57,044 bases of DNA, taken from NCBI GenBank assembly GCA_002491825.1, contig DKWR01000024.1, forward strand, positions 1-57,044, given 5' to 3'. Shown here piece after piece: positions 82 to 13,071 of this stretch. Origin of the DNA: Ruminococcaceae bacterium UBA7147 (lineage in GTDB: Bacteria; Bacillota; Clostridia; Oscillospirales; Acutalibacteraceae). Under the pieces are notes generated by a model. It was not told the DNA's origin. It saw nothing but the letters and a program-made list of their open reading frames with translations, and made no database searches. Within the stretch, counting starts at the first letter, position 1. Every line of letters begins with the position of its first letter. The position numbers were made by a program, and so were the translations under genes.

Positions 82-783
82 TTATTTCACTATTTCGTTT
101 CGAGCTAGGTAGGCTGCTGAAATGTCCATATTACACGTCAGAATATAAAAATCTGTGCAGGAAATCAGGTTTTCAAAATTCGTCAGCATTTTATCAGCGG
201 TATCTCTGCTGACAAAATGAGCTGTGGAAAAATAAAGCCTTTTTATTATTTCAGGCGTTTCAGCTTTTCTGATTGAATTACTCTCTCCTCTTTCAATGAA
301 CACGACTGCGCCGAGCGGAGCTGAAATATTATTCGCTATTCCGCTTCCTCCATCAAACGGTGTTCCGTATACAACAGCTTTTTCGTTAAAAATTCTGACA
401 ACCGGCTTATCATCATTAATCATCTTCACATCATTATCAAAAGCTTTTCGCCAAAGGGAAGTATGTGTGGACTTTCCTACTCCGGAATCTGCCGAAAACA
501 AATAAGCCTTTCCGTTATATTCAATCGCAGATGAATGAATCAGCATTGCATTGTATTTAATTATGCTTTTGCAAAATTTTCCTGCATACGCAAATTCCTC
601 TGCGGCACCGATAGTTGTGCCCGGTACCATTCTCTTAATTAAGGAGTTGATATGCTCATCTGAAACAGACAAAGAAATATCAGTGTTTCTGTCGCCGTAG
701 TATTCAAAAGGCTTTGCAAGATTTCGAAAATGATCATATTTTGGTTCAAACTCTGTTACAAGTTCAGCTATAAGATATTTCAT
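82..783 (-). CDS. HPr-kinase/PEPCK-like P-loop protein (ScmC-like or lasso-peptide-kinase-like)
   Basis: Motifs LIHSSAI, Walker A SADSGVGKST, INDDKP and YGTPF; GGAGG RBS upstream. Confidence 0.7.
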   Translation of the reverse strand: MKYLIAELVTEFEPKYDHFRNLAKPFEYYGDRNTDISLSVSDEHINSLIKRMVPGTTIGAAEEFAYAGKFCKSIIKYNAMLIHSSAIEYNGKAYLFSADSGVGKSTHTSLWRKAFDNDVKMINDDKPVVRIFNEKAVVYGTPFDGGSGIANNISAPLGAVVFIERGESNSIRKAETPEIIKRLYFSTAHFVSRDTADKMLTNFENLISCTDFYILTCNMDISAAYLARNEIVK

Positions 784-800
784 TGTCCCTCCAAATAATA

Positions 801-834
801 TTTTAGGGAACGACTCTAATATCGTTCCCTAAAA
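801..834 (-). other. Intergenic stem-loop
   Basis: Perfect 13-bp inverted repeat ttttagggaacga/tcgttccctaaaa; no clear U-tract on the coding strand. Confidence 0.7.
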
Positions 835-851
835 CAAATACTTAAAATCAA

Positions 852-1712
852 TTATTCAAATCCAACAAGAATACGCTGAATCTGTGTTGCGTCAAGTACA
901 TTAACTACACCGTCTCCGTTTACGTCAGCGAGTGAAAGCTGATAATCGGAGAGATCCTTAATTGAGGAAGCGTAATACTGAATAAGTGTAGCATCGCTTA
1001 CATTGACAATTCCGTTCATATCAACATCACCGATTTTATATTCGGGAATAATCTCAAAATTGATGTTATTTTCTTCAGCATACTGCTGTGCGTACGAATC
1101 TTTATAAACATAAAGTGTAAGATTCGGACAATTTCTGAATGCGTTTGAAGCAATAGAAGTTGTTGCTTTAGGAATTGTGATTGACTTTAGAGATGTACAA
1201 TCAGAAAAAGCAAAGGAGCCTATTGATTCTACCGTTGAAGGTATTTCAATCGTTTCAAGACTACTGCAATTATAAAATACCTGATCTTTAATTTCAGTCA
1301 ACTGCGATTTAATCTCTACGTTTTTTAATGAAGGACAGTTTTGTAAAGCACCAATGCCAACATTAAGACAATTTTCAGGAATTACAACCGACTGAAGATT
1401 GGACGCTTCGTAAAAAGCTGCATCTCCAATAGAGGTCAGTGTATCCGGAAAAGACGCAGAAACAATATAGTCATTTTGATAAAAAGCCATCATTTTAACA
1501 GCAACAACAGTATCTCCGAAAATTTTCTCGGGAACAACCATGTTACCGTCTTTTAATTTGTATTCCGTAATAGTAATTGTACCGTCACCGTTTTTCATAA
1601 ATGTAAAATTGCCGTCACTGAAGTAGGTAGCAGCAAAAGCTGACGATAGACTTGAAAAAATTAATATTACAGGAATTAAAACAGAAGTGAAAATAAATCT
1701 GATTTTCTTCAT
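852..1712 (-). CDS. Secreted BspA-type leucine-rich-repeat protein with C-terminal dockerin
   Basis: Signal peptide ending AFA; LRR_5 repeats (IGxxAFxxCxSLxSIxIP); duplicated GDVDMNG..DATLIQ / DVNGDG..DATQIQ. Confidence 0.9.
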   Translation of the reverse strand: MKKIRFIFTSVLIPVILIFSSLSSAFAATYFSDGNFTFMKNGDGTITITEYKLKDGNMVVPEKIFGDTVVAVKMMAFYQNDYIVSASFPDTLTSIGDAAFYEASNLQSVVIPENCLNVGIGALQNCPSLKNVEIKSQLTEIKDQVFYNCSSLETIEIPSTVESIGSFAFSDCTSLKSITIPKATTSIASNAFRNCPNLTLYVYKDSYAQQYAEENNINFEIIPEYKIGDVDMNGIVNVSDATLIQYYASSIKDLSDYQLSLADVNGDGVVNVLDATQIQRILVGFE

Positions 1713-1730
1713 ATAATCACCTTTTATAGG

Positions 1731-1759
1731 TAGAGGGGCAAATGAGATTTGCCCCTCTA
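1731..1759 (-). other. Intergenic stem-loop
   Basis: Perfect 13-bp inverted repeat tagaggggcaaat/atttgcccctcta; followed by CCTATAAAAGG rather than poly-U on the minus strand. Confidence 0.75.
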
Positions 1760-1778
1760 AATTATTAAGACATTTTAG

Positions 1779-1919
1779 TTAAATCGGACTGCCGCTTACT
1801 TCTTCGCCGGTTTCGTTTCTTGTTTCCTCCGGAGTACTATCGTCCATATAATCGGACAAAATTTCAGAAAAAGAAAACTTTTCTAAATCAAACGAAGGTT
1901 CTTCATATATTCTCTTCAA
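1779..1919 (-). CDS. 46-aa acidic peptide MKRIYEEPSFDLEKFSFSEILSDYMDDSTPEETRNETGEEVSGSPI; RiPP-precursor-like
   Basis: AAGGAGG RBS overlaps the TAA stop of the upstream gene, with TTG start at 1919; N-terminal YxxP motif; stem-loop follows the stop. Confidence 0.7.
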   Translation of the reverse strand: MKRIYEEPSFDLEKFSFSEILSDYMDDSTPEETRNETGEEVSGSPI

Positions 1920-1932
1920 TTCTACGCCCTCC

Positions 1933-4900
1933 TTACTCAGTTGTCTTTGTAGTAACAGCTGATGAATTACCAATGTCAAACAGTGTAAAGTAAACAGGTT
2001 CTGTCATATCATATACCACTTCACCATTATCATTTGTATAATAAACATAGTAATATGCTTTATATACATAGTGTCTGTAATAAGCAGTGTTCGGGAACTT
2101 TACATAATAATCAAGTCTGTTTTTATTGTTGTAATCCTCGTTCTTAATATCAAACTTATACATAGCTTTGCTTTTGCTTTCATCTGCTGTAACTGAACCG
2201 GATGTACTATCAGATGTAGCAAAAGTTTGAATTTCAGATTTTGAAAAGCTTTCTTCTGCTGTATAAGCCGTTTTAAGAGCGCTAAATTCATCAGCGGTAA
2301 GTTTTGCATCAACCGCATCAGGTTTTTCAATCTTATGATTATTACTGAACTCAACAATCAAACCTGTGTGATATTTATCCTTTGCAAGTTCACCATTAAG
2401 GAGAATACCGTTTGAGCTCATATATGCTACGATAAAGTCTGCATAGAGATAGTCTGACTTAACTTCACCTGTTGAATCTGTGTACTGCTCACGAGTAAAT
2501 GTAGGATCGGAAATTGTGAGTGACTGTGACTTTTCATTAGAATAAACAGGATAAATGTAATAATCACCTAAAATTCTTAAATTGAACTTAGTTGAATAAC
2601 ATTTAGCAATTTCCTTATTGATTCCCTTATCATGCTCATTTAAGTCATAAACAATCCAATAAGCAAAGTTTGTATCACCATCAGCACTCTTGGAGTTAGC
2701 TACGAAAAATTCATCGGAACCATCAAGGAGATAATCATTATCTTTAACATTTTTGAAAGCAAAACCTACATTATCAGAAGTTCTATAATATACTGTATGC
2801 ATCAGTTCAGAGTGAGTACCCCAAAGGGTTGCTGTAGTACCCTGTCTAGTAACCTTCTGTTCTGTTATTGTCCATGTGCAATCCTTATGAAGGTCTTCAA
2901 CAGCAGGAGCATTATCGTAAATCAAATCATCAGTAATAAAATAATCCGGATGTTCCTGCAGGTAATCATCCGTAAGCTCTACAACCTTTGTGTAGGTTCT
3001 CTCATCGCCAAAACGGTTGTAGTACTTATAGTTAAGAATTGCATTCTTGGTAACAGGAGCTATGTCAGAATAATACTGTAAAGAGCTAACCTCTAATCTA
3101 TTACCGAAATACAAATCTTCGACATTTAATGTCATTGTCTGTGTTGCAGTACCGGATTTACCAATATAATCATTGCTTGTGTTATCGTCGGAGATAATCA
3201 TATAATCATTTGCATCATATCTGAAGTAATCAACAAATGTATTTTCACCCTTCATAATTGTTTTGAGAGTGATGTCAATAGTATACTTGCCTGAAAGCAT
3301 CTCAGGTGTTAATGCGATGTTGATAGCTGCCTCAGTTTCGGGGAACGACTGAATTTCGCTACCTTGTCTATTCTTAATTACAGCAGAAACAAGATAATAT
3401 CCGCCGCCGCCGAGAGCATCCGGACCGGTATACTTTTCATGAGTAATGCTAAGTACACCTTCCTCAATCTTTTCAAAACGAGCTACAATGTTATAGGATT
3501 TATCAACGAGGAAGTCCATTGAAGACGAGGTAACAGGAAGCGGTGAATAGTTGTTACCTTCATCATCAACTGTTCCCCATCCAACGAACACATAACCACT
3601 CTTTGATGTTGCAGTGATAGCTGCATTAACGTTACGTTCTGTAAAGTCCTTTGATGCGACACCGTTTACCGAAGTAATATCATCAATTTTTACAGTACCT
3701 GCGGTTTCACTTTCATCAAGACTCCACGCTGCAGTTTCATTATCTCTGTACTGAACTTTTACTGTAACGGGTACAGTCTGACCGGTAGACTTTGTGTATA
3801 ACCAACGACCGTCAATACGAACGCCGCTGTTACCGCCAACTCCGGCAGATGAAGTATCGGCATTCATCTCTGATTCGTAAGTAATCTTTACAGGTACACC
3901 TTTATAACTACTATTATCATTAATAGTGGTGTATTGGGTAGTCTGCGACTGTCCTTCGGGACGTGCAATAAAGTCGGAAGGAACACCCTGAGTAATGTAT
4001 TTACCATCATTGTCGTAAACGTACCAAACAGTTGACCACTGACCTTTATCAGCTACGTCCTGGTTACCTGTTGAAACAACATACAAATGAGAACCCTTTG
4101 CATTGTAATCACTGATTACATTTCCGAGGATGTCAACGTGCTCGTCATCGAAGTTGAGCAAATCGTCCCAACCGTTATTATTAGCATAGGTAGTCTTATC
4201 AATTGCACCTGAAACGGTAGGATGATTATAATTATTAGTCAAAAGAGTATACTGGTTTGAAGCTCCTGTTCTGTATTTAATCTCAAACTTAACGGTATCA
4301 TAACCAAGGTCTGCAATGTATTTGAAATCATCGTAGTCGTAGGTCTGATAGTTTTTACCGATTTCGGGATAAAGTGTTCCGTGAAGTTCCTTTTCAATAA
4401 AGCTGTTAAGAGTGATACCGGAAATAGTATAATTTGTTCCGTCGCTCTTTGTTCTTGGCTTACCGTCTGCGTAAGCAATACGAGGAACTCTTGTGTAGTA
4501 CAAGCCGTTTGAAGAAAGAATCATCGGCTGACCGGGATAACCGGTAGTGCTATATGCTTCTTTATTTGAACCGCCTGTGTAATAGTATGAGTAACAGGAA
4601 ATTGTGTTGCCCCAGTGGTCACCAAGCTCCGAAGCGTCAACGTACACTGTGATGTAGTCATTATTCTTTTCTGTATTCTTATTGAAGTACAGCGGAGTGA
4701 TTTCTACAAGGTTGTTTTTCTCGTCGCCCGATACCTTATATGTGGTTTCATATACATTATTTGCATTTGCAGAAGCGGGATAGGAAATACCGTTTACACA
4801 GAAAGCGTAAACATAATAACCGTTAGCAGCAGCTGCAGTAGTCATAGTTGTCTGAATTGTAAGATAATCTCCCGAATTTGCGGTGTAAACATTATATTTT

Positions 4901-7014
4901 TCGTTTTCTGTCAAGAGATTAAGTTCACCACTGCTATTATCTGTGAGTACAGTATCGCCAAGCGGACTTGTACCGCCTTCTACCGTTGTACCGTCCTTTG
5001 TGTAAACATTGATAGATTTCTTACCGTCTGTAGTCTGTGACAGACTGATTACAGGATTAGTATCAGAGGATGTGAAATCAAGCTTAATGTAATATACGTT
5101 GGACTGATTGAAAATGTAGTTTTTGCTGTTAGTGGCAGAGCTGTCGCCCCAAGTAGTGATATTATCAGAAATTGAAGGCGTAAGCGTAAAGTTATCATTG
5201 GTTGTTTGAGAATACTTAACATCATTACTTTCGGTTAAGCTGACTCTTTTAATCTTAAACCAATATTCTTTGTTAAAGCTGATTGAAGAATAAAGAATCT
5301 TTGGATTTGTTTCAGACGGAGTCATTTCGTAAGAAACTTTACCGTTGTCACCGATAAGATAATACTTATAAGCAAGGTTACCTGCTTTTGTAATAGTCTT
5401 TGCATCTGAAAATGCTGACTCATTATAATTATCGGATGAAGATGGACCGGGAACAGCCTTAACCTTGTAAGAGCCTGCTTCGGTAATCTCATAAGTATCA
5501 GTTGTGAATGTCTTATAAAGGTTACCGTCTTTGTAGAGATGATATGTTACATCTGGAGCATTTTCTGAAATTGCGATGTGGTTGGAAACAGTTAATGTAA
5601 CCGATGTTGCGCTTTCAGCAATTTCTTGTGCAGAGAAGGTGAGCGTAGGAGTAGCAAGAACAGGCTTTGAAGTTGCTTCTGTCCATGAAAGAGTCCTTGT
5701 ATCTGCATTCCAAGTGAATGTAACGCTTTGATATGAAGTAGCTGGTACTTTCCACTTATTACCGGTGTTAAAATTCGTATCAGTTGTAGAACCGGCAGAT
5801 GTACCTGAACCGGCGTTATTATCATTTGGGTGGTAAACATTAGTACCATCATTAATTGTAATATACTGATAACCAGCCTCGTCATTTTTGAAAGTATAAT
5901 TTAAAGAATATTCACCACTTGTAGCAGTTTCAGTAAATTTGTATTTATCGTCAGGGTTACATACTTGTCCTTTATCAATCCAACCGCTGATGTACCAGCC
6001 TTCTACTTCATAACCAGGGTTAGGACTTGCAGTAAAGGTTACTTCTGTGCCGGCTGTTACAGTTGAACCAATAGGAGAACCATTTGCTGAAGCAGTAATT
6101 AAACCGTTAGAACCAGCACCAAAGTTTACGGTGTAGTAGGTTGTTGTTCCGGGTAATGTTGTTGTAGCACAAATCAAATTATTATCTGTTGAATTGTATT
6201 TTGTATTTTTATACAACAATAAAATATAAAATTCAACACCGTCTTGATTTGATACATTACAGTTATGGTCATTTCCGCCTTCATCAGATAAAGATACAAT
6301 GTTTGTAATATTAGACGGGTTATTCGTGAAGTTCTGACCGCCGTATATTTCAGAGCAGTTCCAGTTATCTGCTTCATTACAAATCTTAAAAGTACCATTA
6401 CCTGTTACTTTTGTATAAGCAAAAGTATTATCAGAGCTCTGATCCATTTTAATACCGGTTTCCCACTTATTATAAGTGCCACGCAAATAATAGTTTGCTT
6501 TAGTGTCTCCAGAGCCGGTACTGCCACTATAGGTTGACCAAGTACCTTCAGAATAATAAGTACACTCATTTTTAGTATAATTTTGAGAATTGTCTGGAGT
6601 ATATAAGGGATTACTTGTATTAAAATCTCCTCTATATACTACTTCAGTTTTATGAAAGTTTCCATAATTAGATTGAGAAGCTTTAGTAAATGAAATGTAT
6701 TCTGAATAATCACCGGTATAAGTGCATGAATAAATATCATCAGTTCCACTTACTTTATTCATAGTAATAGGACCATCGGCAAAGTTAGAATTATTCGTTT
6801 GTGAACCTGTACCTTTTTCTTCATCCCAATATGCGCCTTTATAAAAATACGCATAAGCTCCGTTCCAGCCAAGAGTATCTTTAAAATATACCGTTATGGT
6901 ACCATTTGCGGCACTGGTAGTAACAATACCGACTACCATTGTTGAAACAACCATCATCAATGCGAGGATGACGGAAAGCGCTGATTTGCTTATGCGCTTA
7001 ATTGAATGTCTCAT
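1933..7014 (-). CDS. Large secreted multimodular protein (CBM26/starch-binding-like modules, YY[LI]xG beta modules, Ig-like repeats); no dockerin or sortase motif seen
   Basis: 1693 aa; signal peptide ending TSAA; TITVYFKDTLGWNGAYAYFY and ITVYVD..WG..GYPGQPM modules; GYxxxGW repeats; GGAGG RBS. Confidence 0.75.
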   Translation of the reverse strand: MRHSIKRISKSALSVILALMMVVSTMVVGIVTTSAANGTITVYFKDTLGWNGAYAYFYKGAYWDEEKGTGSQTNNSNFADGPITMNKVSGTDDIYSCTYTGDYSEYISFTKASQSNYGNFHKTEVVYRGDFNTSNPLYTPDNSQNYTKNECTYYSEGTWSTYSGSTGSGDTKANYYLRGTYNKWETGIKMDQSSDNTFAYTKVTGNGTFKICNEADNWNCSEIYGGQNFTNNPSNITNIVSLSDEGGNDHNCNVSNQDGVEFYILLLYKNTKYNSTDNNLICATTTLPGTTTYYTVNFGAGSNGLITASANGSPIGSTVTAGTEVTFTASPNPGYEVEGWYISGWIDKGQVCNPDDKYKFTETATSGEYSLNYTFKNDEAGYQYITINDGTNVYHPNDNNAGSGTSAGSTTDTNFNTGNKWKVPATSYQSVTFTWNADTRTLSWTEATSKPVLATPTLTFSAQEIAESATSVTLTVSNHIAISENAPDVTYHLYKDGNLYKTFTTDTYEITEAGSYKVKAVPGPSSSDNYNESAFSDAKTITKAGNLAYKYYLIGDNGKVSYEMTPSETNPKILYSSISFNKEYWFKIKRVSLTESNDVKYSQTTNDNFTLTPSISDNITTWGDSSATNSKNYIFNQSNVYYIKLDFTSSDTNPVISLSQTTDGKKSINVYTKDGTTVEGGTSPLGDTVLTDNSSGELNLLTENEKYNVYTANSGDYLTIQTTMTTAAAANGYYVYAFCVNGISYPASANANNVYETTYKVSGDEKNNLVEITPLYFNKNTEKNNDYITVYVDASELGDHWGNTISCYSYYYTGGSNKEAYSTTGYPGQPMILSSNGLYYTRVPRIAYADGKPRTKSDGTNYTISGITLNSFIEKELHGTLYPEIGKNYQTYDYDDFKYIADLGYDTVKFEIKYRTGASNQYTLLTNNYNHPTVSGAIDKTTYANNNGWDDLLNFDDEHVDILGNVISDYNAKGSHLYVVSTGNQDVADKGQWSTVWYVYDNDGKYITQGVPSDFIARPEGQSQTTQYTTINDNSSYKGVPVKITYESEMNADTSSAGVGGNSGVRIDGRWLYTKSTGQTVPVTVKVQYRDNETAAWSLDESETAGTVKIDDITSVNGVASKDFTERNVNAAITATSKSGYVFVGWGTVDDEGNNYSPLPVTSSSMDFLVDKSYNIVARFEKIEEGVLSITHEKYTGPDALGGGGYYLVSAVIKNRQGSEIQSFPETEAAINIALTPEMLSGKYTIDITLKTIMKGENTFVDYFRYDANDYMIISDDNTSNDYIGKSGTATQTMTLNVEDLYFGNRLEVSSLQYYSDIAPVTKNAILNYKYYNRFGDERTYTKVVELTDDYLQEHPDYFITDDLIYDNAPAVEDLHKDCTWTITEQKVTRQGTTATLWGTHSELMHTVYYRTSDNVGFAFKNVKDNDYLLDGSDEFFVANSKSADGDTNFAYWIVYDLNEHDKGINKEIAKCYSTKFNLRILGDYYIYPVYSNEKSQSLTISDPTFTREQYTDSTGEVKSDYLYADFIVAYMSSNGILLNGELAKDKYHTGLIVEFSNNHKIEKPDAVDAKLTADEFSALKTAYTAEESFSKSEIQTFATSDSTSGSVTADESKSKAMYKFDIKNEDYNNKNRLDYYVKFPNTAYYRHYVYKAYYYVYYTNDNGEVVYDMTEPVYFTLFDIGNSSAVTTKTTE

Positions 7015-7055
7015 TTAATATACCTCCATAAATTTTATTTACGGTGCGCCTTTAT

Positions 7056-7146
7056 AATTAACAATTAACAATTTACAATTAACAATTTACAATCAACAAT
7101 TATTTGTCAACTTGCAATTTATAATTAACAATTTACAATTAACAAA
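7056..7146. repeat. Tandem heptamer array (AATTAAC/AATTTAC) in two blocks
   Basis: aattaac aattaac aatttac aattaac aatttac aatcaac aatt, then a second shorter block at about 7116-7146. Confidence 0.85.
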
Positions 7147-7162
7147 TTAAATTGTTTTTTTC

Positions 7163-7196
7163 TTCCATATGGGCGGGATTAGCCGCCCACACGGAA
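7163..7196 (-). other. Intergenic RNA stem-loop
   Basis: Minus strand UUCCGUGUGGGCGG/CCGCCCAUAUGGAA; two G-U pairs form only on the minus strand; followed by an A-run, not U. Confidence 0.7.
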
Positions 7197-7256
7197 AATT
7201 GTTATTCGTAATTAAAGCGCAATTATTTATTTTAACATTGTCTGACCACAATGTTA

Positions 7257-10200
7257 TCAGCTTGCGAGTGCATACTGAATGTATGTTGCGTCCTTGACGT
7301 CAACCTTGCCGTCAAAGTTTACATCGTAAAGCTCACTCTGCAGAGATGAAACTGTAATCATACTTGCATTTAACATCTGGATATATGTTGCAGACTTTAC
7401 AGTAGGTTCTGATACAGCAGTTACAGTTCCGTTTGAATCATTCACTACTGAACCCATCTTTACTCTTTCACCACCAACGAAAGTAAAGCCAAGAGTTTTA
7501 TTCTTTGCGTCAGTACTGTCGTAAACCATATTTGTTGCTGAATAGAAGAAGTTTTTCTCTATATCGCCTTTACCGGTAAGGTCAACTGCTACTGTATCAC
7601 TCATAAGGTTATCTGCTGTAAAGTAGCTGGCTGTTGATGTCAATTTACCGTTCCAGGTTGCATTGAGCTTTGTTCTCTTTGAAGTGAATGTAAGTGCATG
7701 GGTTTTTGTTGTGTCTACGTTTTCGATTGAAACACTATACCACGCAAAGGTCAACGCACCGGAATAATCCTTACCAAGTTCAGAGGATTTTGTCATTGCT
7801 GTTGCGTCGCCGCCGTCAAAGCTTACAGACGGAGCATATGCAGGAGCTGTTGCTGTCTTGAAGTAGATTTTGATTGTCCTAACATCTGTTGACGCTGTGA
7901 CTGTTACATAAACAGTAGAGGTTTCTACCTTGTCGCCATAGGTTGCTTTTACTGTGAAGGTCTTGGCACCAATCATATCAGCAGTTGCAACAACCTTGAT
8001 TTTACCGTTTTCAACGTTATCGCCGACCGGAGTGTCTCCAAGGTAAACGCTGTATGTAACATCATCTTCAACTGTTGTTACATTGATAAGGAAGCTCTCG
8101 CCTACTTCAAATGTATTTTTTGTTGTGCCGTTTACATCTGTAACTGTTGAAGCGGGTGTCGCGGGAGTGAAAGGAGTGTACTCGGAATCTTTTGTGAACT
8201 GTGCATTGAGCCATGTTGCACGATCAGATGTCCAAGTGTTAAGTGAATTAACTGCTTCTTGATGATTTGCACCAGTATTGACTGAACCCCAACTACTGAT
8301 TGGATCTTTATCAATGAAATTCCAACGAGTTTCATTCATATCTACAGATTCTTTAATCTGATTATACCAGGTATTAATCTGTCCATTTGTACCATAATAT
8401 TTCTGAATTGTTGTGTAGAAGCCGTTAGCGCCTTCCCACTGCTTTCTGATTTCAGTTTTGAAAGCTGAATTCTGACTTGCAAGCTGTGATTGAATGCTGT
8501 ATTTTGTGCCATTAGTGCCTTTGCTGTCATCAAAATATTTATACTTTGCTACCCAGTAGTTATTACCATCACTTACTTTGCCGGCATCTTTTGTATTAAG
8601 TATGTATTCAGAATTGCCAACTTTACCTTTTTTAGTAGTATTCTCGTACTGACCATAAGCCCAGTCATAGTCCCAAACAGGATTTGCTACGAATACTGCG
8701 CCATTGCCGTTTGCATCGTTTTTACTGCAGTCAAATGTTAAGTAGTAGCTTGTTGAAGCAGCGTCAAGGTTTGACGAGAATTCCTGAATGAGGTACATCT
8801 TTGCAAAGGATTCAACGTCCATTACTGTTGAAAGTTGTGCTTTTGTTGCACCTGTTGTAAATGCAATATCTTCCATTGCAGCGAACTTCTGTGCAATATA
8901 TGTTACCTGCTCTTTTGTTGCAAATTCAGGACTCTTTACTACAACGTGCTGTCCTCTTGGAGATGTGAACCAAGAAGCTTCGTCAGTATAGCGTTCTGTA
9001 ATTTCAAACTCGAGTAAGTATTTACCGTCAGTTTTTGAAGCAATTGAGGAAGTATTACCATCAGAGGTAACCTTTGCATAGCTCATTGCATAAGTACCGG
9101 TACCGTATGAATACTCTTCATTAGTTACGGTTGTTTCATCAACAGTACCTGCTGCCTTTTCATTAATATCATCAAAGCTTTCACCCTTAACAAGCTTGCT
9201 TGAGCCTACGTCTACCTTTTCTGTAACAAGGTAAGAACCCATATACTCGCCGTTATCGTAGATGTCAACAAATCTAAATTCGGGAGAATATAAAATACCA
9301 ATGTCTTTTGCAAGCTGATATGTAAGAGCGTTGCGGAGCATTGACTCATCTGCGTTGTTTGCAAGCAAGCACCAGCTCTTTGAACCGGTCGACTCGGTTG
9401 TATCCATATCGAAGAGGTTTGTTGCCGATGAAAGTTTCATATTGAAAGCATATTTACCGAAATTCATCGCACTTGCTTTCCAAGAGGAGTTACCTCTACC
9501 CTTTATGCTGGAAAGTCCCATTGCAGATGAGAAAGAAGCTTCAGAGCCGGTATTAGTCATTGTTTTGCAAGATCCGCCCTTATAGTTAACCTTCTCTTTA
9601 TATGCTTTTGCGGCTGCGTCTTCTTCAGCTATGCTACTGCCTGTAACAGCAGGATTATATTGTGTAGGTAGTGCAGTTGATGTTGTAAGGAACATTGCGT
9701 TTGTTGAACCCTGCATTACCTTGACTTTACTGACAGAACCGCCGGTAATTGTGTTATCACCTATTACAAGGTTAACGTTTTCTGCTTTACTTTGGTTTGC
9801 AATGGTTTGTCCGCCAAGTGTAATCTGACTACCTGTTACATTGTAAATTACAGCATTTGAAAGATTAACATTCTTTGGAACGTAGAATGTGTAGGGGTTT
9901 GTTGTGTTGTGATTCTTACCATAATAATTGTTCCACTTTATAAGTGTTGATGTTGAGTCGTTCTGATAAGGAGCAACGTCTATCCACAAACCATCATTCT
10001 GAGCTTTGACGTAATCAAGCTTACCTGTTGAAGTAAGGGTAAATGTACCCTTTACAGTAATTTCCTGACTCTTAACATCGGTTGTAGCAAGACCGTCAGG
10101 AACTGTAAACTTGAATGTATTGTCGGCAGTTTTAGTTGCATTAATATCATGTGCAACCTTATTGTTATCTTTGTAGGATACAGAAATTGATTTGCACTCA

Positions 10201-11225
10201 AAATAACTGCTCGGTGTTGCTGTTACAGTTACTTCGTCGCCTGCATTTGCTGTGCCGGCTGCTTTGTCGGGAGCAGAGAATGTAAGCTTACCGTTTGCAT
10301 CGGTTTTGTCAACGATTTTGAAGTCGCCTTCGGTCGGCTCTATAGGACCGGTTGCTGTTTCGTACCAAACCTTTTTATTTAATGTATCAAGACAAATCTT
10401 TATTGTTTGAGCATCGGTGTTTTTAAATGCAAATTCACCCGAAGAATATAGATTGAGTTTAATCTTATTTGAAGAGTCACCTAAAGCCTGATCGTTACTA
10501 GTTCCGTAATATGTGTTAGTACCGTCAGAAAATCTAAACCAGGTATCTTCAGTAAAAGTAACCGTCTTACAAACAACATTCGAGTCACCTGCATATGTTT
10601 CATCTAATGGAACGGCTGAACCAGAGTTTGCAGCCCATTCATTACCAAAAATACCGCTTCCAACAATAGACCAAGATGTTGTTGGAACAGGAGAAGTCGT
10701 TTCTGTTGCAGGTTGTGTTGTAGTTTCTATTGGTGTTGTACCATCATCTTTTGATAAAGCAATAGTATTGGCTGTCGGGTTGAATGTAACTTTTACTTTA
10801 AAAGATGATTGAACTTGTGATTTGATATAATAGTAATAACCTTGATTATAACTGTTACCAACATTCAACCAATGAAAATTAGTTGAATCAAAAGTACCGG
10901 TAGTCTTTGAATCAAGTGTATTCAAACCAGTCGTAATAGTACTTGAGTCAGTGTTAATATAACAAACAAAAGTAGTATTGGCATTTAACGAAGAATCTTC
11001 AAATGAAGCTACATAGTTAGTACCATCTGCTGTCATTTCAACTTTTTTAGTAAAACTACTATAATCAGTATTAGCGCCAATCGTATACCATAAATAATAA
11101 GTACCTGCTCCGACAGGTTCGCTGTCAATTACAGCAGCGTTAGCCGGTATTGCTACGAGAATCATTGATATTACCATCATTATTGACAAAATAATGGAAA
11201 TCAAGGATTTTGACTTAAATTTCAT
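7257..11225 (-). CDS. Secreted CotH-family protein kinase with accessory beta modules and a degenerate C-terminal dockerin
   Basis: CotH motifs IKGRGNSSW, WCLLAN..D.SMLRN, NGEYMGSYLVTEKV and PVWDYDWAYG; signal peptide; P/T linker; C-terminal DVNFDGKVDVKDATYIQ. Confidence 0.88.
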   Translation of the reverse strand: MKFKSKSLISIILSIMMVISMILVAIPANAAVIDSEPVGAGTYYLWYTIGANTDYSSFTKKVEMTADGTNYVASFEDSSLNANTTFVCYINTDSSTITTGLNTLDSKTTGTFDSTNFHWLNVGNSYNQGYYYYIKSQVQSSFKVKVTFNPTANTIALSKDDGTTPIETTTQPATETTSPVPTTSWSIVGSGIFGNEWAANSGSAVPLDETYAGDSNVVCKTVTFTEDTWFRFSDGTNTYYGTSNDQALGDSSNKIKLNLYSSGEFAFKNTDAQTIKICLDTLNKKVWYETATGPIEPTEGDFKIVDKTDANGKLTFSAPDKAAGTANAGDEVTVTATPSSYFECKSISVSYKDNNKVAHDINATKTADNTFKFTVPDGLATTDVKSQEITVKGTFTLTSTGKLDYVKAQNDGLWIDVAPYQNDSTSTLIKWNNYYGKNHNTTNPYTFYVPKNVNLSNAVIYNVTGSQITLGGQTIANQSKAENVNLVIGDNTITGGSVSKVKVMQGSTNAMFLTTSTALPTQYNPAVTGSSIAEEDAAAKAYKEKVNYKGGSCKTMTNTGSEASFSSAMGLSSIKGRGNSSWKASAMNFGKYAFNMKLSSATNLFDMDTTESTGSKSWCLLANNADESMLRNALTYQLAKDIGILYSPEFRFVDIYDNGEYMGSYLVTEKVDVGSSKLVKGESFDDINEKAAGTVDETTVTNEEYSYGTGTYAMSYAKVTSDGNTSSIASKTDGKYLLEFEITERYTDEASWFTSPRGQHVVVKSPEFATKEQVTYIAQKFAAMEDIAFTTGATKAQLSTVMDVESFAKMYLIQEFSSNLDAASTSYYLTFDCSKNDANGNGAVFVANPVWDYDWAYGQYENTTKKGKVGNSEYILNTKDAGKVSDGNNYWVAKYKYFDDSKGTNGTKYSIQSQLASQNSAFKTEIRKQWEGANGFYTTIQKYYGTNGQINTWYNQIKESVDMNETRWNFIDKDPISSWGSVNTGANHQEAVNSLNTWTSDRATWLNAQFTKDSEYTPFTPATPASTVTDVNGTTKNTFEVGESFLINVTTVEDDVTYSVYLGDTPVGDNVENGKIKVVATADMIGAKTFTVKATYGDKVETSTVYVTVTASTDVRTIKIYFKTATAPAYAPSVSFDGGDATAMTKSSELGKDYSGALTFAWYSVSIENVDTTKTHALTFTSKRTKLNATWNGKLTSTASYFTADNLMSDTVAVDLTGKGDIEKNFFYSATNMVYDSTDAKNKTLGFTFVGGERVKMGSVVNDSNGTVTAVSEPTVKSATYIQMLNASMITVSSLQSELYDVNFDGKVDVKDATYIQYALAS

Positions 11226-11261
11226 TTTTTATTACCTCCATAACCTTTTTATATTGGTAAA

Positions 11262-11367
11262 GCAGAGAACTATATTCTTTGGAAATCAAAAAGATTTGTT
11301 CAGCTTTTACTGCCTGACCTACAGTGAAATCGGGTGACTTCGGCTGAAAAAGGGTATAGTTCCCCAC
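11262..11367 (-). ncRNA. Candidate structured 5' leader RNA of unknown class
   Basis: 13-bp closing stem with 3 G-U pairs valid only on the minus strand, a 6-bp inner stem and three small hairpins, between the promoter and the RBS. Confidence 0.5.
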
Positions 11368-11380
11368 ATTTATTTATGAC

Positions 11381-11409
11381 ACTATAACATTTTAATGAAT
11401 TTATTTCAA
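11381..11409 (-). promoter_or_regulatory. SigmaA promoter of the CotH operon
   Basis: TTGAAA-N17-TATAGT with extended TGn; long AT-rich region upstream. Confidence 0.65.
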
Positions 11410-11720
11410 TAGTTTTAAATACATTTTATTCCATTTGTTATATTTAATGAATTATTGTGTTATAAATAAATTATAGTTGTCATTTTATAAAAATAATTTG
11501 TGATTATTATAATTATTTGTTAAAATATGTCGTTATTTTGGTGTTTTCTACAGCGTTATTATAGCATAATTAATTTATATTTTTATTTGTTTTTATAATA
11601 TTTGTGCATTATTTTTAAATTTCAGCGTTTTATACAACTATTGAAATATGATTTTGTGTAGTATTTTAGTATTTCATTGTGTTTTATGAAGAATTTGTAT
11701 TGATATATTGGTGACGTTTT

Positions 11721-11883
11721 GGGGACGTCAAGGATGCCGTCCCCTACGGAAAGATTGGTTTGTAACGATAATACTGAAATATTCGGTTGCGTTTGATAAT
11801 CACTACGGACACGGCACGCCGTGTCCCTACGGCGTAGGTGACGTTTGCGGAGAGGTGTGATAGACGAGGGCGTTGCTCGCTAC
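11721..11883 (-). repeat. Cluster of three GTAG-type REP elements (families B, A, C)
   Basis: Copies at 11721-11747, 11807-11830 and 11863-11883 each end in CTAC (GTAG on the minus strand) next to a GC-rich imperfect palindrome. Confidence 0.8.
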
Positions 11884-11913
11884 AATATTATGGAAATGTT
11901 TGCATAAGGTCGT

Positions 11914-12035
11914 AGGTCAGATAAAATTGCATATATCAGGAAAAGTTCATCTCCACCCCTCAGTCATTTTGCAGGCAAAATGACAGCTCCCCTCGAAAGG
12001 GGAGCCACGGATAGATAATCAGTATTTTGTTGTTT
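11914..12035. repeat. Truncated copy of the palindromic element inside the MITE at 30840-31119
   Basis: About 90 bp near-identical to 30955-31047 (aaaagttcatctccacccctcagtcattttgcaggcaaaatgacagctcccctc). Confidence 0.85.
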
Positions 12036-12039
12036 ATTT

Positions 12040-13071
12040 CTATTTGTTTTTGCCGAATGAAAGGAGCTGTTTTGACGGAAATGAGAATACCGACAATGAG
12101 CATACAAAGGTGACTGCTACGGCTATCAGTATATATACTCCCGTTGCAATTGTATCGCCTGTGACTGATGAGATGAGTTCGTATACTCCGAAATGCGAGA
12201 GCAATACCAGAAATACCTGATGCCAGAAGTAGATTTGCAGGGTTTTGGAGCCTGTTTTCGATATTATTCCCAGATTTATGTCAGGCACAAGGCTCATTAC
12301 CGACAAGCCGAACAATGTTGAAATTGCATAGCAGAGAAGTCTTATTAATCCACCGAAGGGTTTGCCTTCTTTGAGTACTTCAAATGAATTTCTGCCTGTG
12401 AAAATCGGTCTTAAGTACTGATATATATCGGTGTTTATGAAGAAAAGTGCTAAAAATCCGACTGCTACAAATATTGAAACGACTTTTACCCACTTGTTTG
12501 ACAAAAAAGCGGCAAGGCTTTCGGGCTTTATCATATAGCCTGCTACAAAGAACGGGAGGAATACTACTATTCGCATTAGGGCAAGTTTATCGCCGAGGAA
12601 TTTATCGTAACCTGCCATACAGCCGATCAGAAGTGAAAGCAGGAGTATGATTTTGGTGTTGTACTCCCTGAAAAGCCACATCAACGTTATGAACACTGCC
12701 ATTGCCCACATAAACCATGTGAACGAATCGTACATATCAAGCAGTGAATAGTTCATATTTTTGCCGAGTAACAGGCGGAGAACTGACATCATTACTCGCA
12801 GTACTATTCCGATAAGGACGAATGAAATTACCTTTTGCTTCGGAAATTTTGTTGACTTGTCCATCGGTTTGAGAAAAAGTCCGCTTATGAAAATGAAAAG
12901 CGGCATATGAATTGAATAGATTGTCAGAAACAGGCTCTTTTCAAGCATATTTCCGTCTGTTTCAGTCAGGAAATTAATTGCATGACCGATTACTACAAGC
13001 AGAATTGCAAGAAATTTTATGTTGTCAAAAAGATATATTCTGCCGATTTTGTTTTCTGTGTTTTGTATCAC
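12040..13071 (-). CDS. Acyltransferase family 3 (membrane O-acetyltransferase)
   Basis: R..FDNIK..AILLVVIGH and HMPLFIFISG motifs; about 10 TM segments; GTG start with AAGGAG RBS. Confidence 0.9.
   Translation of the reverse strand: MIQNTENKIGRIYLFDNIKFLAILLVVIGHAINFLTETDGNMLEKSLFLTIYSIHMPLFIFISGLFLKPMDKSTKFPKQKVISFVLIGIVLRVMMSVLRLLLGKNMNYSLLDMYDSFTWFMWAMAVFITLMWLFREYNTKIILLLSLLIGCMAGYDKFLGDKLALMRIVVFLPFFVAGYMIKPESLAAFLSNKWVKVVSIFVAVGFLALFFINTDIYQYLRPIFTGRNSFEVLKEGKPFGGLIRLLCYAISTLFGLSVMSLVPDINLGIISKTGSKTLQIYFWHQVFLVLLSHFGVYELISSVTGDTIATGVYILIAVAVTFVCSLSVFSFPSKQLLSFGKNK

Follow-up and report, generated by a model that had tools for sequence, protein, structure and literature searches.

The 57,044-nt window analysed here is contig DKWR01000024.1 of Ruminococcaceae bacterium UBA7147 (assembly GCA_002491825.1, 72% complete and denoted G000; other G labels are genomes of relatives and L labels are loci read in them). 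Its first part holds a block of five minus-strand genes, which encode, in order, a secreted CotH-kinase-domain protein, a giant secreted protein, a 46-aa peptide, a leucine-rich repeat (LRR) protein with a dockerin, and a cytoplasmic HprK-like kinase (Table 1). The central observation is that the peptide tracks one domain, the C-terminal module of the giant protein, and duplicates together with the giant gene. Judged by its sequence features, the peptide system appears to work like that of the linear polyphosphorylated peptides (LPP), a family described for lppA-K-B-S-D-N of Paenibacillus alginolyticus (Popov et al. 2026, PMC13381572), and strict membership fails on leader consensus, kinase score and clustering. 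We suggest, with about an even chance of being right, that an LPP-like pathway has been split, that its precursor and kinase make up this block, joined to a surface-protein cassette, and that the peptide partners the giant protein. An initial annotation of this DNA had described five co-oriented genes, a RiPP-precursor-like peptide (RiPP, a peptide made by the ribosome and modified after translation) and a modified peptide tied to dockerin surface proteins; all of these held up, the five open reading frames (ORFs) each having a ribosome-binding site, and the gene order is conserved in relatives.

An acidic YxxP peptide lies directly 3′ of the giant gene in 30 of 31 loci fetched (28 found by script, and two, in G029 and G008, by eye below the acidity cut), and the same script rule fires behind only 2 of 493 other genes of G000, so the linkage is far above this control. 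Where the giant gene is duplicated (G008, G016, G024 and G026), each copy keeps its peptide. The reverse test used 49 further peptide loci that had not entered the alignments. The module was encoded directly upstream in 26/29 high-scoring and 17/20 lower-scoring loci (43/49), and LRR motifs were found downstream of the peptide in 27/28 and 18/20, respectively (45/48). Because these loci were hand-picked by score from the matches listed, with the 78 weakest matches unlisted, and the genomes are kin, the counts are descriptive. Of 151 sampled genomes of the dockerin-bearing gut Ruminococcus group, 123 have a match to the peptide profile. Outside the genus, the module matches 14 of 298 genomes, mostly weakly, and four of these were read more widely: the four-gene order is present in G293, the giant gene is followed by the peptide in G107 and at two loci of G110, and the short contig of G356 has no peptide, nor do six other weak loci outside the genus. 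The pairing of giant gene and peptide is thus present in three other genera.

Such linkage might reflect shared regulation only, the LPP-like peptide having its own role (e.g. joined to surface glycans) and being merely co-expressed with surface proteins. LPP clusters of Bacilli do lie in capsule loci, according to the part of PMC13381572 used here, and nucleotidyltransferase (NTase) paralogues occur in polysaccharide loci of the present genus, both of which fit this explanation. However, every duplicated copy of the giant gene has a peptide copy with it, and the peptide follows even the most distant giant homologues, which share only the last 330–420 aa (G008 and G035), in other genera too. 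Co-regulation alone does not predict the tracking of one domain, and we therefore consider shared regulation a fairly unlikely explanation.

The peptide itself has the layout of a precursor, with the leader motif Y5-x-x-P8, a conserved Ser28 and an acidic tail. In an alignment of 31 peptides Y5 and P8 are invariant, the Ser28 column is conserved at no less than 90% (Ser in 29/31), and the core sequences are highly variable. This leader and the conserved Ser support the RiPP-precursor-like nature of the peptide. Compared with two relatives, its first 21 codons have third-position changes of 11/19 and 11/23, with 10 non-synonymous codons in each comparison. No Pfam family matches the precursor. 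Neither the peptide nor the kinase has a signal-peptide-like hydrophobic N-terminus; the CotH, giant and LRR proteins all have one.

The kinase likewise has no Pfam match. Its best NCBIfam matches are TIGR04352 and TIGR04249 (E 0.001, 18 bits), and among PDB sequences it finds HPr kinase 1ko7 only, at E 0.31. PF27840 is precomputed on most of its homologues, the close ones are named Ruminococcus sp. by their sources, and relatives of the kinase occur in 36/36 other genus genomes. The window kinase belongs to a clade of 21 rows (support 96/86) that includes the kinases of G036 and L136, and these two sit directly before an RRE-S26-ABC-NTase series. The initial annotation had taken the P-loop protein for an HprK-type RiPP kinase, and the retained His, Walker A and DD motifs, the weak TIGR04352 match and the clade with RRE-linked kinases agree with this assignment. 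G000 holds a second HprK-like kinase (C73:3138-3878, 36% identical), without RRE or peptide beside it and next to a gene that we take to be YjeF-like.

LPP clusters encode an SpI peptidase, an RRE, an HprK kinase, an NTase and an MsbA-like exporter, and in the sections of PMC13381572 on biochemistry LppK phosphorylates core Ser3 and LppS cuts after T-1 with the RRE. In the present genus, PqqD and PF14907 are each found in 36/36 other genomes. Kinase, RRE, S26 peptidase, ABC and NTase genes all adjoin the cassette in G036 and L136, and the five LPP enzymes clustered with the cassette are thus found in these relatives, not in G000. Four of the five adjoin the cassette in G033 and G014, where the peptidase is the one not called, and in G024, where the kinase is not alongside; RRE, peptidase and kinase adjoin it in G023, G018, G021, G025 and G013. 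In six relatives that have the gene order of the window (G012, G031, G029, G015, G027 and G007), an RRE-peptidase(S26, SipW-like)-NTase set follows groEL; an RRE-peptidase pair follows groEL in G002 and lies elsewhere in G001. The neighbours groEL and DegV in relatives are named from their sequences. The initial annotation had pointed to the DNA beyond position 1 of the window as the place to look for RRE, peptidase and NTase genes; in close relatives other genes (presumably rex, murC or cas3-like) follow the kinase and the set sits at another locus. In G000 no match to groEL, groES or the RRE-peptidase-NTase genes was found; since groEL and groES are also unmatched there, the groEL region is unassembled.

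The partner enzymes of the relatives carry LPP-type residues. Aligned to N33 and D70 of LppB (9x8z), their RREs have Asn in at least 90% and an invariant Asp (n = 13). The genus peptidases have invariant Ser32 and His71 (n = 13) at the LppS spacing of 39 and match TIGR02228 like LppS; they also have an invariant Asp87, which is not at the spacing of LppS D93. A variant arrangement was seen in G016, G005, G030 and G024 (L045:8226-10748, L046, L123 and L125), where kinase-RRE-peptidase genes come after secreted proteins that have linkers rich in Ser/Thr and an acidic tail at the C-terminus, and no short precursor was seen at these loci. At L088:7121-11739 of G003, an LPP-like set comes with two precursor-like ORFs and a gene of the radical SAM/SPASM type.

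Likeness to LPP therefore concerns the YxxP leader, the conserved Ser near the cut site, the variable tail, the HprK-like kinase and the lack of a cyclase, and, in relatives of the window, a discrete RRE with LppB-type Asn/Asp, a SipW-like peptidase, a PF14907 NTase and an MsbA-like exporter. The differences are that the pathway is split over loci here, with only precursor and kinase in the window, and that the neighbours here are a giant secreted protein and an LRR-dockerin, in place of the capsule locus of LPP. Several points weigh against our proposal. The incomplete G000 assembly yielded no RRE, peptidase, NTase or exporter, and the split RRE loci of the closest relatives showed no exporter alongside. 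The leader lacks the HQ and FET of the LPP consensus YxxPxVLxHQxIxFETxxS, has Leu/Ile at the T-1 position and Asp at F-3, and is 1–5 residues longer, the Y-to-S distance being 19–23 across precursors and 23 in the window versus 18 in LPP. The cassette kinase scores 18.2 bits against a cut-off of 200 for TIGR04352, the family of LppK, and a terminator-like hairpin stands before its gene. Nine cassette kinases, including L093:6555-7226, L095:15179-15859 and L106:11476-12159, form a separate clade without Walker A and DD (pseudokinases), so that loss of kinase function does not preclude persistence of the cassette. In G036, the sole exception among the 31 loci, the peptide lies upstream of the giant gene; at L136 there is no peptide between the giant and LRR genes; 6 of the 49 further peptide loci have no module profile match upstream (one had no upstream gene in view); and the loci are kin to one another and were selected by score. 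Several of the pseudokinase genomes hold an intact kinase paralogue at an unrelated locus.

The initial annotation knew of no description of its combination. As regards enzyme logic this novelty does not stand, since it matches LPP (PMC13381572); the cassette of giant protein, peptide and LRR gene remains novel in so far as no description of it was found in open-access literature. The dataset of the LPP paper includes one Ruminococcus peptidase, outside the LPP cluster and with no precursor assigned, its tables place Dockerin_1 near 2 and CotH near 1 of 126 core peptidases, and its main text contains neither ‘Ruminococcus’ nor ‘dockerin’.

A lasso-type route had been suggested by the likeness of the kinase to PadeK/ThcoK. 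In this reading, the peptide would be the precursor of a paeninodin-type phosphorylated lasso peptide with its cyclase encoded elsewhere. Paeninodin/pseudomycoidin clusters, including rumen ones, share the HprK kinase, RRE, NTase, ABC exporter and [YW]xxP precursor, as far as the account in PMC7533575 goes, and the YxxPxF leader, the lasso-like RRE and the two asparagine-synthase genes of G000 could be read in the same way. But no macrolactam cyclase was found among the genes read at cassette or RRE loci, no B2 peptidase is linked, and the conserved Ser is internal, not C-terminal as in the described lasso precursors. A search for the B2 peptidase with PF13471 passed the cut-off in only 1 of 37 genomes, inside a 727-aa frame. 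Both asparagine-synthase genes start with an intact N-terminal Cys-Gly-Ile, lie among unrelated genes and are unlinked to the cassette, the genus leader peptidase is SipW-like, and the leader has Y, not the W of WxxP. A lasso peptide is thus scarcely credible here. The SynChlorMet cassette (TIGR04248-04251) also combines an HprK-like protein, a PqqD-like protein and a peptidase; it differs in that there is no radical SAM gene at giant-protein loci, and the ScmC score is 18 versus a cut-off of 125.

The giant protein, with which we propose that the peptide is partnered, consists of variable N-terminal repeats, a CBM26/25-like domain with insertions, B-repeat/pilin-like domains and a C-terminal FN3-like domain. 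Homologues are 1364–4037 aa long where complete; their N-termini differ (CBM26, B repeats, X25), and the C-terminal region is common to them. None of 31 giant homologues has a dockerin, a sortase motif or a C-terminal helix. Models of aa 730–1693 (pLDDT 84) and aa 1169–1499 are chains of beta domains; fold searches covered aa 730–1693. Wide structural searches all gave Z under 8 (CBM26/25 Z 7.4–7.9, FN3 Z up to 7.5, pilin/B-repeat Z 5–7), and Foldseek returned only low-TM matches for both models, to pilins and other beta-sandwich chains. A cohesin had no Pfam match in the giant protein and was absent from the top 50 of either structural search (aa 730–1693), which does not exclude one. Clustered at 50% identity, the module counts 680 representatives, and it stands at the C-terminal end of the proteins listed. 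Within it, Arg1508 (28/32) and Arg1633 (30/32) are conserved alongside acidic and aromatic residues, and that these two arginines could bind phosphate is a conjecture. In the proteomics table of PMC4611034, an abundant 1,495-aa hypothetical protein (CBL15066.1) is recorded in Ruminococcus bromii supernatant.

The LRR-dockerin would connect the cassette with the amylosome. In the parts of PMC4611034 and PMC9112005 drawn on here, the R. bromii amylosome has dockerin accessory proteins including LRR-dockerins, which attach to cohesins and are released from the surface by EDTA, and CBM26-type modules; no peptide, kinase or giant anchorless protein is described there. For an amylosome subunit both an LRR protein with a dockerin and a cohesin gene are relevant, and both are present in G000, which holds one detected cohesin gene and a pullulanase-like dockerin gene. 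CotH, LRR, PqqD and kinase do not occur in the consulted text of the R. bromii strain paper PMC5814915. Scaffoldins are listed in the supplements of 10.64898/2026.02.05.704116, which may be relevant to the question of a cohesin.

LRR domains are protein-binding modules. The peptide could accordingly be a secreted signal or checkpoint that is sensed by the LRR-dockerin or the giant protein and tunes adhesion or amylosome assembly, with no structural role. The LRR gene after the peptide in 45/48 further loci with a downstream gene and the highly variable cores would suit such a signal. Nevertheless, the linked genes at the loci read include no sensor kinase or regulator, and the LRR-dockerin and the giant protein have no membrane-spanning part to pass a signal, which leaves this alternative improbable.

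Returning to a peptide that partners the giant protein, leader-guided phosphorylation, trimming, NTase decoration and export are probable by analogy with LPP biochemistry. An RRE encoded elsewhere would bind the YxxP leader, and the kinase would add one or more phosphates to Ser28 (alternatively Ser22). A SipW-like peptidase would then cut two residues before the Ser, before Asp26, releasing an acidic core of ~21 aa; the NTase may decorate the phosphate, and an ABC exporter would secrete the core. Outside the cell, the binding site of the core would be the LRR domain and/or the C-terminal module of the giant protein, which has no anchor of its own, and the dockerin of the LRR protein would tie the complex to amylosome-type cohesin scaffolds. 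This extracellular part is inferred from linkage only, and we put it slightly below an even chance. A bolder version, in our view unlikely, is a new mode of protein display on a Gram-positive surface: giant adhesins, which lack a sortase motif, a dockerin and a membrane helix, would be held by the phosphorylated, NTase-decorated peptide as their dedicated anchor or linker, which would bind their conserved C-terminal module and couple them via the LRR-dockerin to the amylosome. The final structure and role of LPP are given as unknown in the Discussion of PMC13381572. The cassette would provide LPP-like peptides with a first candidate role, in cell-surface construction, and, because it names two concrete candidate partners, the C-terminal module and the LRR-dockerin, the role question becomes directly testable by binding and knockout. 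If the peptide does anchor or activate giant proteins, it would be a RiPP serving as a structural part of the cell surface and an unrecognised layer of the amylosome.

The initial annotation had defined a phosphorylation-based surface system by two kinases. The peptide-surface linkage survives from this description (2/493 in the control); the two-kinase definition and the lasso-type route are not supported. Among the 24 loci whose upstream gene was readable, only 5 have CotH directly upstream of the giant gene, so ‘two kinases’ are not core, and CotH is an accessory gene, a lineage-specific passenger that belongs to one lineage plus a small number of others. The CotH domain scores 103.6 bits against a PF08757 cut-off of 23.8 and thus confirms one half of the proposed secreted CotH kinase-dockerin; the dockerin is degenerate, with no Pfam match at E ≤ 0.05 and tblastn E 0.001 to the LRR dockerin. 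The G031 orthologue does match Dockerin_1.

In an alternative reading, phosphorylation by the secreted CotH is integral to the system, its target being the giant protein, the LRR protein or the peptide after export. The full five-gene order occurs in G031, G029 and G014 and, with CotH confirmed, in 5/9 loci of a second set, which may overlap the first so that the counts are not added; CotH genes also neighbour NTase paralogues. In the nine aligned CotH sequences NLD and WDYD are invariant, and a weak alignment to 5jd9 (0.9 bits over the stretch) places them with the two catalytic Asp of Bacillus CotH, D228 and D251. Against an integral step stand the 5/24 count, a related dockerin protein without a CotH domain in the CotH position of G012, the presence of CotH genes, often several, in 36/37 genus genomes mostly away from the cassette, and the replacement by Ser of the Asn after the first catalytic Asp in all nine. 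We consider this step quite improbable. Compared with the CotH atypical protein kinases (PF08757; Bacillus CotH, as described in the portion of 10.1101/469122 used), the domain is over cut-off and the NxD and WDYD motifs are kept, and the differences are the secreted multidomain form, the degenerate dockerin and the Asn-to-Ser change. PF14907 NTase paralogues lie beside CotH-dockerin genes in polysaccharide-type loci of G017, G033 and G014 (L115, L116, L117 and L119), and a second CotH-dockerin gene of G000 (C63:12598-15695) adjoins the only cohesin gene detected in the genome.

Table 1. Features of the five-gene block and its flanks (window coordinates)
Feature	Position	Strand	Remarks
REP-like repeat	1-32	none	At contig end, which falls inside the repeat
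Cytoplasmic HprK-like kinase	82-783	minus	Motifs all intact: His, Walker A (ADSGVGKS), DD
16-pair stem-loop between LRR and kinase genes	799-836	minus	Terminator-like or processing signal
Secreted BspA-type LRR protein with C-terminal dockerin, 286 aa	852-1712	minus	PF13306 E 2.7e-35, PF00404 E 3.5e-10
Stem-loop between peptide and LRR genes	1732-1758	minus	Unique in genome
46-aa LPP-like precursor	1779-1919	minus	TTG start; begins 13 nt after stop of giant gene
1693-aa secreted beta-sandwich protein (giant protein)	1933-7014	minus	InlB-type B repeats (Pfam)
Conserved C-terminal module of giant protein, about aa 1320-1693	1936-3057	minus	Common to the most divergent peptide-preceding homologues
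Intergenic region between CotH and giant genes	7015-7256	minus	G+C hairpin and AT-rich 14-nt repeat
Secreted CotH-kinase-domain protein, 1322 aa, domain aa 575-1006	7257-11225	minus	PF08757 E 2e-29
Candidate sigmaA promoter TTGAAA-17-TG-TATAGT	11381-11409	minus	10/12 match with TG
Two REP-like repeats	11717-11831 and 11908-12001	none	Upstream of block

Position 1 of the window is the end of contig C15, and a contig from a DNA run stops at the same end repeat. The block has a G+C content of 37.4% versus 42.3% for the genome, equally low values being found in 1.1% of 353 same-size genome windows, and the third-position G+C (GC3) of all five genes is within the lowest 2–5% of 832 genes; the AT-richness of the block and the REP-like elements on both flanks were correctly noted in the initial annotation. 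The single sigmaA promoter that it had assigned is present as a site, but its being the sole promoter found little support, since a scan gave 60 sites versus 42.9 ± 6.4 in shuffled sequence, and one promoter for the block is thus plausible, not established. RNA-library contigs of relatives cover all five genes and bridge the junctions giant gene/peptide (X2 and X4), peptide/LRR (X3, X5 and X6) and LRR/kinase (X5); no bridging of the CotH/giant junction was found among the RNA contig pieces listed. They are a weak hint of co-transcription, as contigs cannot show a single transcript and DNA is possibly present; nor does RNA depth allow the genes to be ranked. Stem-loops between genes set stoichiometry in cellulosome operons, according to the part of PMC4423207 used. 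The AT-rich 14-nt repeat between the CotH and giant genes (7041-7159) occurs at 22 places in the genome. Upstream of the block lies an Acyltransferase_3 gene (12040-13071), whose position is kept in several close relatives; as regards horizontal transfer as a conceivable cause of the low G+C, the block stands behind the acyltransferase gene also in G012, G029 and several loci of the second nine-locus set.

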